Of a stretch of 64,000 bases of DNA, positions 45,366-49,004 are shown in pieces. The notes beneath the pieces were generated by a model, which saw only the letters and a list, made by a program, of their open reading frames with translations, had not been told where the DNA came from and searched no databases. Source of the DNA: Microthrixaceae bacterium (GTDB lineage: Bacteria; Actinomycetota; Acidimicrobiia; Acidimicrobiales; Acidimicrobilacustridaceae); assembly GCA_947449015.1 (NCBI GenBank), contig CANFQA010000002.1:13855-77854 (forward strand), given 5' to 3'. Every line of letters starts with the position of its first letter. Positions within the stretch are counted from its first letter, which is position 1. A program made the translations under genes and the position numbers.

Positions 45366-45760
45366 TGCCTCTCGCCGTCGAACTCGTTTCCCCCGAGCGC
45401 ACGTTGTTCTCGGGTGAGGCCACCATGGTGCGTGCGCGCACCGTGGGCGGTGGCGATATCGCGTTCCTTACCGGTCATACCCCGTTCGTGGGGGCGCTTG
45501 CCATCTCTACGCTGGAGATCACGCTGGTCTCCGGCGGCTCCGAAGTCGTAGCCGTGCATGGTGGATTCATCGAGGTCAGCCATGACCGCGTGAAGGTGCT
45601 GTCTGATCTGGCTGAGCTCTCATCGACGATCGATGTTGAGCGGGCGCGTCGGGCCGAGGAAAAAGCACAAGCAGCGGTAGCCCGTGGCGACGAAGTCGAA
45701 GCACAGGGCGCACTGGCCCGCGCCACCGCTCGTCTCGCCGCATCCGGCCAACTGAGCTGA
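45365..45760 (+). CDS. atpC: ATP synthase F1 subunit epsilon
   Basis: VELVSPERTLFSGEA, FLTGHTP, VHGGFIEV and IDVERARRA. Confidence 0.96.
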
Positions 45761-45827
45761 TCCCGATCGGCCGCATCACGGTCGGATCGCATCTAACGTC
45801 AGTAGCCATGATCCACATGGCAGGTCG
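45728..45827 (+). repeat. Direct repeat, left copy (attL-like); includes the last 33 nt of atpC
   Basis: 45728-45814 is identical to 48905-48991 (87 bp); the match extends to 100 bp with 2 mismatches (ACAT vs TCTT). Confidence 0.97.
45764..45789 (+). terminator. Hairpin after atpC (inside the duplicated segment)
   Basis: CGATCGGCCG-CATCA-CGGTCG(G)ATCG: 10 pairs with one G-U and one bulge, no U-tract. Confidence 0.35.
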
Positions 45828-45957: not shown

Positions 45958-46518
45958 TCAAACCTCGAACATTTCGTGGCGCAATTCGAAACTGGTCTCG
46001 AGATTCGAGTCCCAATCAATGGAGCGAATGTCAACTTCAGGACCTATTCGGACTTCGGGACGGATCACCTCAAGGGTCTCTTCGAACCAGCCACCGCGGG
46101 CGACGTAGACATCGCGACCCGAGAGATGGAAGATGATTCCATGATCAATTGAGACCCTGAAGGCGAGTGCGCCTGCGATAAAGGCGTCCACCTGGGCTCG
46201 AACCACCGAAATTCGATCAATCGACTGACCCCTCTCGTGGAAGTACATAAGACCTCGGGACATTGCAGCTCGGGAATCTCCCATACCCTCCTGGATAGAG
46301 AGGGCGGCGAAGTCCTCTGGGCCGCTTTCGAGCGGTGAATCGACTAGGTCTGTGCCGATCGTGAATGAACCGGCTGAGGTAACGATATAGAGCGACCCGA
46401 CGGCGAATCGGCCTTCATGGAGCAGAGCTGAACCGCCGTAGTAATCCCATGTAGTTCCGATGTGGGAGTTGAGGATTAACTTCTCGCGTGGGGTCAAGTG
46501 TGTTTCAAACTCATTCAT
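45958..46518 (-). CDS. Acidic hypothetical protein (candidate immunity/antitoxin)
   Basis: 186 aa with about 29 D/E versus 15 K/R; ATG overlaps the stop of the upstream gene (46515-46518). No family recognised. Confidence 0.7.
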   Translation of the reverse strand: MNEFETHLTPREKLILNSHIGTTWDYYGGSALLHEGRFAVGSLYIVTSAGSFTIGTDLVDSPLESGPEDFAALSIQEGMGDSRAAMSRGLMYFHERGQSIDRISVVRAQVDAFIAGALAFRVSIDHGIIFHLSGRDVYVARGGWFEETLEVIRPEVRIGPEVDIRSIDWDSNLETSFELRHEMFEV

Positions 46519-46883
46519 GTTGAGCTCCTAACGAAGTGGATGCGTTGAGTCTTAATTGGTCCGCCGCTTTTCGAACGTGTGAGTTGGATCGAAGGAGACC
46601 CATCTCTTGATGTTGGTCGAACACTGATACTTGAACCATCGCTGAAGAGCACTATCTTCGCTCCATTTTTGGCGATAGTTGCTTTGGGGCCGTTCTTCGT
46701 CGCATAAGCAAAGAATTTTTCAGAAGAGTTCCCAGGGTTTGAACTTGCGATTCGACGACGGTTCGAACTGGATCCGGGCTCTCCGAAATAGCCTGCCTTG
46801 AGCTGGCCGAATTCCCGCACGAGTTGATGGAGGTTGCTCTGGATAGATCGTGCGCCTGGAGTACTCCCGCTACCCCCGCCCAT
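46515..46883 (-). CDS. Small basic 'MGGG' protein (candidate nuclease-type toxin)
   Basis: Starts MGGGSGS at ATG 46883, overlapping the DUF4417 end by 14 nt with GGAG upstream. 122 aa with 18 K/R versus 5 D/E; C-terminal DGSSISVRPTSRDGSPSIQL...KTQRIHF. Confidence 0.7.
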   Translation of the reverse strand: MGGGSGSTPGARSIQSNLHQLVREFGQLKAGYFGEPGSSSNRRRIASSNPGNSSEKFFAYATKNGPKATIAKNGAKIVLFSDGSSISVRPTSRDGSPSIQLTRSKSGGPIKTQRIHFVRSST

Positions 46884-47565
46884 CGTTGACTCCGTTTCTG
46901 GCAAGAGCGATCCGCGGAGCGAATATGAGCAACTCAACGGAGCGGTGCTTAAGTGAGTTCTCGATACTCGGCGAAAGGGGCCGCCCGTGGAGAAGGATAA
47001 GCGGTGGCGACAGGACTTCGGCGAGTGCGATTAGGCCTTCTTCAAAGTAGAACTTGTCTTCCCGACTTCGCCAGCAACCGTGGTTCGACACGGTAACTGG
47101 AATGCCGGATGGCACACCTGCGAAACAAAAGTCGTAGTCAATGCTGGTACTCCACCTAATCGTAGGAATGACCGTTAGGCCGCGTGACTGAAAGTAGACA
47201 CCGACTTCTCGGCTCATCCAAACATTGCCGATTCGCTTGTGACGAGGCATAGACCGATGCAATGAAAAATCCGGTGTCGCAACGCTGGAATATCTTGAGA
47301 TTCGGAACAGCTGCCGGTGAGGACTCCTCACTAAGCCGGAGATGCGATTGTCCTGAAGGTAGAAGTGGATCATCGAATCAGCTGGATCAGAGTCGCGACC
47401 AATGCGATCAAATCCGACCATATGTTTCGGGGGCTCCCTGAGGTCTGGCGGCGGAACCAGCTTGGGAATCTGTTCGGTTCCATCGGTTTGGCAAGGGGGA
47501 AGCCACTCTGGCGTCGTGACTACATGGGAAACGCTTCCCGTAGGAGCATTGGGGGGATATAGCAT
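46870..47565 (-). CDS. DUF4417 family protein
   Basis: IHFYLQD, VATPDFSLHRSMP, GNVWMSR, FQSRGLTVIPTIRW, YDFCFAGVP and ILLHGRP match the DUF4417 pattern as I recall it. Confidence 0.82.
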   Translation of the reverse strand: MLYPPNAPTGSVSHVVTTPEWLPPCQTDGTEQIPKLVPPPDLREPPKHMVGFDRIGRDSDPADSMIHFYLQDNRISGLVRSPHRQLFRISRYSSVATPDFSLHRSMPRHKRIGNVWMSREVGVYFQSRGLTVIPTIRWSTSIDYDFCFAGVPSGIPVTVSNHGCWRSREDKFYFEEGLIALAEVLSPPLILLHGRPLSPSIENSLKHRSVELLIFAPRIALARNGVNDGRG

Positions 47566-47621: not shown

Positions 47622-47651
47622 GTGTGGGCGGAGGTGCAACTCCGCCCACAC
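47622..47651. terminator. Perfect 12-bp hairpin between the HTH-peptidase gene and DUF4417
   Basis: GTGTGGGCGGAG-GTGCAA-CTCCGCCCACAC. Confidence 0.6.
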
Positions 47652-47676: not shown

Positions 47677-48783
47677 CTAGTTCCAGGAGTTGAGGTCCTC
47701 CTTGACCGAAGGAATTCGCTTATTGAGGCGAGAGTTCCAGGGAATGCGACCGTCACGCTGAAGTCTTCCGATGATGAGCGATTCACTAATCCCTCGGCGT
47801 CTGGAAAGTTCGACTACCTGAGCTTCGGTTACGGGTCCGGTGGATAGGTCCTCAAGATCAGGAACGAGCCAACTTCCTGCTTGAAGGTCCGCTGCAAGTT
47901 CTCGACTTGCCTCCTCAACCCTTTCAGAAGATTCGGGATCACTTATGTAGATCCCACCATTTTGGAGATGACCAAGTGATACGTGTGCAAGCTCATGCGC
48001 AATCGTGAACATGATCTTGTCGCTTCGCCCACCGCGACCTGAGATGGAAATGAGCGGGTGACCATTGACGACTGTGCAGACTCCATCAATGTTCCCCCCG
48101 GAATACGGAGGTACGAAGACAAGCGCAATTCCGACCTCGGAAAACCTCTCTGGCAATTCGCGAAAATCCTCACGCGTCCTGACGGTGGTCGCCAGTGAGC
48201 CACCAAGTTGTTCGAGGACAGTTACGTTTGCGAGCGGAGGCAGGTCGCCAGAAACGAGACTTCGAGACTCTGCAATCCAAGCAAGTTGCTGTCGGGAAAC
48301 TGGCCCGATCTTTTCTTTCCTGCGCGCAGAGGCCGAAAATATGATTTCGTCCTCTATGGAACTTATGCCGAGCAACTTATTTGCAGCCTTCTCAATCGTT
48401 TGCGGGTCCGAGTCGGGAAGCGTCCCCCTGCGAATCATCTCGCGTGTTGGCAGAATCCGCTCCACGCGGCTCCGGCTCTCGATTTCGCCGAGTCGTCTGA
48501 GAGTTCCTGAATCTTGGAATGCTGAGTTGAGGTTCTCACTCGCTCGAATCGTCATCCAACTGAGGGCAGAACCACCAAGGGCTCGACTTAGGTCAAGCGC
48601 CTCCTCCGGTCGGAGTGGAGATCGATGATTGACAAGGTTAGAGAGAGACTGCGCAGACCAACCGAGGACCCGAGCAAGGTCTGCTTGCGACCAACCTCGA
48701 GCCTCTATGTGTAGCCCAATTGCCTCGCGAATGGAGGAAAATATCGGGCTTTCATCATACATATCAAGGAATCCGTAATTCAC
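47677..48783 (-). CDS. XRE/HigA-type HTH fused to ImmA/IrrE-family zinc metallopeptidase
   Basis: N-terminal HTH ARGWSQADLARVLGWSAQSLSNLVNHRSPL...ALDLSRALG, then NIDGVC, DKIMFTIAHELAH (HExxH) and downstream ELAAD. Confidence 0.88.
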   Translation of the reverse strand: MNYGFLDMYDESPIFSSIREAIGLHIEARGWSQADLARVLGWSAQSLSNLVNHRSPLRPEEALDLSRALGGSALSWMTIRASENLNSAFQDSGTLRRLGEIESRSRVERILPTREMIRRGTLPDSDPQTIEKAANKLLGISSIEDEIIFSASARRKEKIGPVSRQQLAWIAESRSLVSGDLPPLANVTVLEQLGGSLATTVRTREDFRELPERFSEVGIALVFVPPYSGGNIDGVCTVVNGHPLISISGRGGRSDKIMFTIAHELAHVSLGHLQNGGIYISDPESSERVEEASRELAADLQAGSWLVPDLEDLSTGPVTEAQVVELSRRRGISESLIIGRLQRDGRIPWNSRLNKRIPSVKEDLNSWN

Positions 48784-48820: not shown

Positions 48821-48904
48821 CCTTATCTTCACGAAGTAACTGCCAGCGCCGAATGCCCGAACCGTCGCACTCACATTTCGAGACATTTGGCTAATGGGGC
48901 CAAG

Positions 48905-49004
48905 GCTCGTCTCGCCGCATCCGGCCAACTGAGCTGATCCCGATCGGCCGCATCACGGTCGGATCGCATCTAACGTCAGTAGCCATGATCCTCTTGGCAG
49001 GTCG
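48905..49004 (+). repeat. Direct repeat, right copy (attR-like)
   Basis: Matches 45728-45827 at 98/100 positions; ends 12 nt before the GAP gene start. Confidence 0.97.

Follow-up and report, generated by a model that had tools for sequence, protein, structure and literature searches.

Here we examine a 64,000-nucleotide stretch of a Microthrixaceae bacterium assembly (GCA_947449015.1, contig CANFQA010000002.1, positions 13,855 to 77,854 of the forward strand; hereafter the window), in which a small islet carries a gene of the DUF4417 family followed by genes for a basic and an acidic protein. Together, these genes are probably one copy of a polymorphic toxin-immunity cassette led by DUF4417, carried on an acquired islet behind a regulator that joins a helix-turn-helix (HTH) domain to an ImmA/IrrE-type (M78) protease. 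In the model that we propose, the basic protein of 122 amino acids (aa) would be the toxin, built from a glycine-rich N-terminal tag and a toxin domain, and the acidic protein would be its cognate immunity protein, neutralizing it by binding. DUF4417 would serve as an enzyme-like, TIM-barrel constant partner that recognizes the tag and then holds, processes or hands on the adjacent toxin, while recombination would exchange the toxin-immunity pair behind the tag. By analogy with ImmR/ImmA or CapH/CapP, the HTH-protease would repress the operon until it cleaves itself in response to stress, for instance damaged DNA or infection.

Constant and exchangeable parts of the DUF4417 cassette

The initial annotation stated that DUF4417 genes are often followed by open reading frames (ORFs) starting with MGG, and this holds in most loci surveyed. 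Species genomes from many phyla supplied 80 DUF4417 loci, and earlier metagenome loci brought the total to 89; an ORF starting with MG[GATSK][GR] at, or a few bases from, the DUF4417 stop codon is present in 77 of these, across many phyla and phages, and 12 have no tagged ORF. The tag is glycine-rich and 6-16 residues long, and the bodies behind it are unrelated to one another (22 BLAST families among 71 proteins). Its commonest form is MGxGxHGGFGNTxG, and variants include MGGRGAxS (in actinobacteria, lactobacilli and streptococcal and mycobacterial phages), MGGGSG (in the clade of the window), MGHGY, and MSKxSSGLFxGTxG, the last being preceded by a divergent DUF4417. Across 32 distinct sequences, the tag's Gly residues are encoded by each of the four codons and its His residues by either codon, and the residues are fixed, so selection acts on the tag as a peptide and not as DNA. 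Domains found behind it include Ntox50 (1.5e-19), bacterial EndoU (2e-16), DUF6883 (3e-14) and a papain-fold glutamine deamidase (2e-14), together with a PBECR1-like family of nine members that falls below the Pfam threshold. DUF4417 genes fused to ParB likewise precede MGGRG-tagged genes. When viral contigs were searched with a single sequence, only the tag matched.

Toxin genes of different families lie behind DUF4417 proteins that are 95-97% identical, and the toxin family of the window is found behind DUF4417 proteins merely 30% identical to one another. Between swapped loci, DNA homology spans DUF4417 and stops 29 to 50 nt into the toxin gene, which is the end of the tag. Both the tagged loci and the swapped toxins bear out the idea of DUF4417 as a conserved protein that accompanies a variable toxin. 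The gene that follows the toxin gene is usually small and acidic, and its family pairs approximately one to one with that of the toxin (T0 with I0 in 12/12 cases, T1 with I1 in 8/8); the window's pair belongs to toxin family T1 and immunity family I1. In one locus (L071, 3593-4835), a second toxin-immunity cassette stands in tandem behind a single DUF4417 and is preceded by a repeat of the junction (-62 to +46), comprising the last 62 nt of DUF4417 and 46 nt of the tag. At the level of sequence, swapping, co-variation and a tandem cassette are hallmarks of polymorphic toxin systems.

Beyond adjacency, five genomes of the window's genus carry a permuted triad (MGGGSG-toxin, immunity gene, DUF4417) at a different chromosomal site, with no protease gene. 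The toxin gene there is off the 3' end of DUF4417 and the tag is still present; therefore, the tag is kept without adjacency. Loci with the permuted triad are L117 (4980-6795, in genome G011), L118 and L113-L116. Furthermore, automatic annotation of an ESM Atlas cluster of 86 proteins places DUF4417 (present in 100% of members) and a barnase-type Ribonuclease domain (in 99%) together on a single chain of 348 aa. The permuted triad, this fusion cluster and the tagged genes after ParB-DUF4417 suggest a cooperation between DUF4417 and toxin that goes beyond their being neighbours. In further ESM Atlas and AlphaFold Database (AFDB) clusters, DUF4417 shares a polypeptide with a Cys_rich_CPCC domain or with ParB_N, and one AFDB neighbour of DUF4417 is annotated as a calcineurin-like phosphoesterase. 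A programmed frameshift joining DUF4417 to the toxin was considered and rejected: the toxin frame relative to DUF4417 is +1 in the window's clade and -1 in loci with a 1-nt overlap. As these loci share no recoding geometry, coupling by termination and reinitiation is a simpler explanation.

Phages carry the cassette as well. The phage collection holds 492-502 DUF4417 matches, and the family matches 385 Mycobacterium phage records, in which, among the rows sampled, it lies near the left genome end or near the right end (~63-67 kb). In Streptococcus phage A25, DUF4417 and a tagged gene stand just before the terminase genes. Mycobacterium phage ArcherNM (Fromanvirus; L093, 391-2296) begins with a DUF4417 gene annotated as a 'nuclease' (gp1), an MGKRGG-tagged VIP2 ADP-ribosyltransferase annotated as a 'toxin' (gp2) and a 99-aa acidic protein (gp3). 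Phage structural genes are missing from most related loci, which weakens packaging into capsids as a general mechanism.

The putative toxin, its acidic partner and DUF4417

Searches of Pfam, NCBIfam and PADLOC returned no match for the basic or the acidic protein, and none of the trio of DUF4417, toxin and immunity protein had a hit in PADLOC or NCBIfam. Local jackhmmer searches tie both proteins to pairs behind DUF4417 in Selenomonadaceae, Treponema and Muribaculaceae records. By exhaustive profile search, the toxin family, for which there is no Pfam model, comprises at least 597 cluster representatives at E <= 1e-3 (407 at E <= 1e-10). Its members are mostly 120-145 aa in length and start with a glycine-rich tag, and a few are C-terminal domains of longer proteins; in P0054, the domain follows an N-terminal MuF fragment. 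The AlphaFold2 (AF2) model of the window's protein, with a predicted local distance difference test (pLDDT) of 85 and a predicted template modelling score (pTM) of 0.79, shows helix-strand-helix and then four strands. In the Atlas, it resembles small unnamed protein clusters, one of them mostly viral (template modelling (TM) score 0.81-0.84), and also clusters with RHS repeats (28% of members; TM 0.65) and MafB (65% of members; TM 0.60). Atlas feature searches with the three proteins gave unnamed clusters and weak leads to Ntox37, MafB and DUF6334 only.

It had been suggested that the basic protein is a small nuclease of the BECR fold, neutralized by the acidic protein. The toxin-immunity part of that proposal gained support, as the basic protein falls in a toxin family and the acidic ORF co-varies with it (T1-I1 in 8/8, and a like pairing in P0062, below), and the BECR part did not: no BECR protein is among the best PDB matches of the AF2 model (Foldseek E >= 0.05; VIA-align Z <= 4.9), and hhalign comparisons with the PBECR1-like, Ntox50 and EndoU sister families gave probabilities of ~1% or less. 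A Pol-beta nucleotidyltransferase core, to which a weak likeness recurred (Z 4-4.9), was also set aside; the family has no conserved acidic pair. Among 142 representatives, the near-invariant residues are R89 (100%), H116 (99%), Q113 (93%), D82 (92%) and R43 (91%), and N17, G31/F33/G34 of the GYFG stretch (31-34), S96-P97, K/R114 and F117 are near-invariant as well. This pattern of near-invariant polar residues would fit an active site, and the acid-Arg-His set is compatible with, and not diagnostic of, a metal-independent RNase, a type whose catalytic set combines His, Arg/Lys and Ser/Thr.

The acidic family is also met in a different architecture. Downstream of P0062, a 207-aa protein that has the toxin domain with a different N-terminus, lies the gene for a 180-aa protein; its alignment to the acidic family spans 140 columns (E 1.6e-4), and the two have the motif S.D..I.F....D....R..WF.E in common.

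DUF4417 itself is confirmed by Pfam (PF14386; E 5.5e-38, 130.7 bits against a gathering cut-off of 28.9). Its AF2 model, made from a 70-sequence alignment, has a pLDDT of 91 and a pTM of 0.87 and consists of alternating strands and helices. The conserved residues are H67, D72, P98-D99-F100-S101, G163 and G194, and, by DSSP positions, H67, D72, D99, S101 and G163 sit in loops right after successive beta-strands. The model thus predicts a TIM-barrel-like protein whose conserved residues are placed as in TIM-barrel active sites. The top VIA-align matches of the model are the archaeosine tRNA-guanine transglycosylase (TGT; 1iq8, Z 10.1), the DNA preQ0 insertase DpdA (7ui4, Z 9.6) and QTRT2 (6fv5, Z 9.4); for comparison, Z is 7.9 for a fourth TGT member (3unt), 9.1 for the designed TIM barrel 7uek and at most 8 for the remaining natural TIM barrels. 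Foldseek against the PDB gave only generic TIM barrels with poor scores, TGT lying outside the top 1000, and against AFDB clusters and Swiss-Prot only generic TIM barrels or DUF4417 and ParB-DUF4417 proteins. True homology to TGT/DpdA was rejected, with an hhalign probability below 1% (70-sequence DUF4417 alignment against a narrow, 12-sequence TGT alignment). DUF4417 and the TGT/DpdA superfamily share occurrence in phages and a link to nucleic acids (for DUF4417, through ParB fusions); unlike TGT and DpdA (370-580 aa), DUF4417 has ~200 aa and no profile similarity to them. Therefore, we treat the predicted likeness to transglycosylases only as a lead at the level of fold. Fusions of DUF4417 to ParB N-terminal domains are frequent, and the family is enriched in phages; published text mentions it solely as a protein, enriched in phages, to which ParB-CTPase domains are fused, and assigns it no function. 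In the full-text literature, we found no paper connecting DUF4417 with toxins.

Comparison with known systems and the role of the cassette

The cassette resembles polymorphic toxin systems (Rhs, CdiA, LXG, MafB and others; Zhang et al. 2012, PMC3482391) in that a constant part is combined with interchangeable toxins and an immunity gene lies directly downstream, in its tandem and orphan cassettes, and in a common repertoire of Ntox50, EndoU, BECR-type, deaminase/deamidase and ADP-ribosyltransferase domains. It departs from these systems in that its constant part is a separate gene plus a tag of 6-16 residues, with no recognized secretion or trafficking domain, and DUF4417 is not among the delivery routes that Zhang et al. 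list. With the MuF toxins of temperate phages (Jamet et al. 2017, PMC5576092) it has in common carriage by phages and the toxin repertoire, including the window's own domain after MuF in P0054, and in phages the position of DUF4417 cassettes is immediately ahead of terminase or at the genome's left end. MuF toxins, however, form part of a head-protein fusion for which packaging is presumed, whereas the toxin of a DUF4417 cassette would be a free small protein beside a TIM-barrel-like one, and many cassettes, that of the window included, have no phage structural genes nearby. As in nuclease colicins and pyocins, a basic toxin is paired with an overlapping gene for a small acidic immunity protein and repressor-based induction by DNA damage is plausible; unlike them, the window's cassette lacks receptor-binding and translocation domains as well as a lysis gene, and its toxin domain is unrelated.

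As to the target of the toxin, we tentatively place competition between cells or mobile elements first, a role favoured by cassette swapping, by an apparent orphan immunity gene (described below) and by a repertoire shared with exported toxins. That the target is self, through addiction or abortive infection, is possible and held with less confidence; this role is favoured by the lack of an export function. Several observations weigh against the model as a whole. The islet contains no signal peptide, trafficking domain (Pfam, NCBIfam), secretion gene or lysis gene, and the toxin model has no match among solved structures, by the Foldseek and VIA-align values given above. Because DUF4417 and the tag are invariably either parts of one constant region or inherited jointly, their joint inheritance is not in itself proof of contact between them. 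Finally, the downstream flanks carry portal or terminase genes in a few loci, Mob, resolvase, integrase or recombinase genes in a few others, and housekeeping genes in many; from such mixed flanks, the cassette appears to be a self-contained module that is not tied to virion genes.

The alternative that survives best, although we consider it doubtful, is an intracellular three-component toxin-antitoxin or abortive-infection module, in which the toxin acts only in its producer, with the acidic protein as a labile antitoxin, DUF4417 as sensor or activator and the HTH-M78 protein as the factor that de-represses the genes upon infection. Such a module would accommodate the resemblance of HTH-M78 to PD-Lambda-2_B and CapP, an islet without export machinery, the overlapping basic/acidic gene pair, the Fic or AbiEii-like AAA_21 genes that lie directly upstream in some related loci, and the many loci situated amid housekeeping genes with no phage nearby. 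It accounts less well for toxin domains that are those of exported polymorphic toxins (fused to MuF, sharing a predicted fold with RHS and MafB clusters, and with Ntox50 and EndoU as sister domains), for the exchange of pairs between near-identical backbones and the tandem cassettes, which are typical of kin-discriminating toxins, for the immunity gene kept alone in L001, or for the lack of a PADLOC match to any of the three genes.

We regard it as improbable that DUF4417 is a mobile-element enzyme with an unrelated role in modifying DNA or RNA and that toxin-immunity pairs merely gather at its 3' end, as a recombination hot spot or a well-expressed site. Its frequent ParB N-terminal fusions and phage enrichment, the nucleic-acid transglycosylases that are its nearest solved folds, and the 12/89 loci without a tagged ORF are consistent with such an enzyme, yet the peptide of the tag is conserved even where DUF4417 proteins have only 30% identity, the permuted triad persists with the toxin off the DUF4417 3' end, a cluster (automatically annotated) fuses DUF4417 to a ribonuclease, and MGGRG-tagged genes also follow ParB-fused DUF4417. 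Hardly credible is the notion that the basic and acidic proteins are something other than toxin and antidote, such as a protein that binds nucleic acid together with its chaperone, or small structural proteins of a mobile element: Pfam, NCBIfam and PADLOC match neither of them and the basic protein's fold matches no solved structure, but sister genes in the same slot and with the same tag are recognized toxins, the domain occurs after a MuF fragment and its fold in RHS- and MafB-annotated clusters, and the near-invariant polar residues of the 142 representatives fit an active site.

If the toxin-immunity model is correct, PF14386, a Pfam family to which no function is attached, marks a large class of toxin-immunity cassettes, of which we found no description in the literature and which extends over hundreds of phage records and chromosomal loci of many bacterial phyla. 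The constant protein and its tag of ~14 residues would then allow new toxin and immunity domains to be located purely by their position, and may also expose a novel principle by which toxins are handled or delivered. A bolder and, in our judgement, unlikely version is that DUF4417 provides a new route for handling or delivering polymorphic toxins, as a small, transglycosylase-like enzyme, often fused to ParB, that recognizes the tag and processes, couples or loads the tagged toxin, for instance onto nucleic acid or into mobile-element particles. Were this so, delivery via DUF4417 would add to the eight routes catalogued in 2012, and any toxin behind the tag would become a deliverable weapon. 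The window's copy extends the system to a lineage with ~62% GC and 2.4-Mb genomes, in which the triad is kept despite a permutation of gene order.

The islet, its likely regulator and its acquisition

The islet lies directly after atpC, measures 3.2 kb and has a GC content of 54% inside versus ~62% outside, by window composition. Direct repeats of 106 nt, 96% identical and 3177 nt apart, mark its two ends, and four co-directional minus-strand genes fill it, encoding the HTH-M78 fusion, DUF4417, the 122-aa protein and the 186-aa acidic protein (Table 1).

Table 1. Features of the islet, in window coordinates.
Feature	Position	Strand	Basis or remark
Left 106-nt direct repeat, att-like	45722..45827		Overlaps atpC 3' end
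Acidic immunity-like protein, 186 aa, ATGA-coupled to toxin gene	45958..46518	-	Co-variation with toxin family
Putative toxin, small and basic, 122 aa, MGGGSG start	46515..46883	-	Family, fold and context evidence
DUF4417 protein, 231 aa, constant partner	46870..47565	-	Pfam 5.5e-38
Perfect 30-bp palindrome / 12-bp GC-rich hairpin, protease-DUF4417 gap	47622..47651	-	Repeat and RNA folding
HTH-M78 fusion (XRE-type HTH and ImmA/IrrE zinc protease)	47677..48783	-	Pfam, PADLOC, HELAH motif
Right 106-nt direct repeat	48899..49004		Repeat comparison

The frame of the 122-aa protein begins at an internal ATG (46883) within the ORF 46937..46515. By the ORF coordinates, the genes overlap as initially described, by 14 nt (46870-46883) and 4 nt (46515-46518), and the charges reported for the two small proteins also hold: 18 K/R versus 5 D/E in the basic protein (isoelectric point 11.5) and 29 D/E versus 15 K/R in the acidic protein (isoelectric point 4.8). 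Compared with three relatives, all four cassette genes have proportions of nonsynonymous changes (pN) of 0.23-0.43 and of synonymous changes (pS) of 0.68-0.88. Since pN is well below pS, they are real genes under purifying selection and not chance ORFs. Rfam has no match in the islet, and a scan for sigma-70 promoters and terminators gave no more sites than expected by chance.

The HTH-protease noted upstream of DUF4417 is genuine, with Pfam matches to HTH_3 (2.3e-8) and Peptidase_M78 (2.4e-5) and an intact HELAH (HExxH) motif; in PADLOC, it matches PD-Lambda-2_B (3.4e-19) and capP (4e-7). HTH and M78 are directly upstream of DUF4417 in 33/80 loci. In Firmicutes and Treponema loci, a separate XRE HTH (117-121 aa) and M78 protease (172-240 aa) precede DUF4417, corresponding to the window's fusion in split form. 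The HTH-M78 fusion is likely the regulator of the cassette. As with ImmR/ImmA, CapH/CapP and component B of PD-lambda-2 (Vassallo et al. 2022, PMC9519451), an XRE HTH and an M78 protease lie upstream of effector genes and co-directional with them. In contrast to PD-lambda-2, the HigB-like A and P4-antitoxin-like C components are absent by PADLOC, Pfam and NCBIfam, B alone being matched, and, in contrast to ImmR/ImmA and CapH/CapP, the downstream genes are those for DUF4417, toxin and immunity protein and not CBASS (cyclic-oligonucleotide-based anti-phage signalling system) or excision genes. A contig in IMG/VR (L125, 1950-7039) has HTH, M78, DUF4417, a tagged toxin gene and an acidic gene, followed on the same strand by a gene for a 573-aa serine recombinase; this arrangement is like that of an immR-immA-int lysogeny operon into which the cassette has been placed.

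In the 111-nt gap between protease and DUF4417 genes, a palindrome would form a hairpin with a minimum free energy of -37.5 (z -2.6). It is unique in the window and is kept in relatives with symmetric (compensatory) changes, and no second copy of its half-site was found upstream of the protease gene. The palindrome may serve the HTH protein as an operator, or act as an RNA terminator or attenuator that has no U-tract.

The four-gene order is kept in metagenome and genome relatives, and a word-indexed search returned few close homologues. On the contigs of relatives, some cassettes occupy the same atpC/SfLAP site and others stand in a different context. The distribution of DUF4417 is patchy, with 7/34 genomes of the window's genus and 0/53 genomes from 22 other genera of the family carrying it, and in a complete genome of the same genus atpC adjoins the SfLAP/PPK2 genes and the islet is absent. 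This patchiness, together with the islet-free atpC site in a congener, indicates from comparative sequence evidence that the islet was acquired. No integrase is present inside it, and it looks like an integrase-less element that is either cis-mobilizable or decayed.

Variants of the islet were seen in several relatives; metagenome assemblies are the main source of the close relatives of the window's lineage. In L001 (GCA_018969405.1, 6760-8567), an insertion sequence with an rve transposase replaces the protease, DUF4417 and toxin genes and leaves a lone acidic gene beside atpC, which would be an orphan immunity gene. In two metagenome contigs (L003 and L004), DUF4417 is broken into pieces of 105-169 aa and the toxin and immunity genes are intact, reflecting either pseudogenization or assembly error. 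Lastly, a record named 'MAG: Bifidobacterium breve' (L012; MAG, metagenome-assembled genome) carries a cassette arranged as in G003, a genome of the window's genus, with HTH-M78 and DUF4417 proteins close to those of the window; the organism name of this record looks doubtful.

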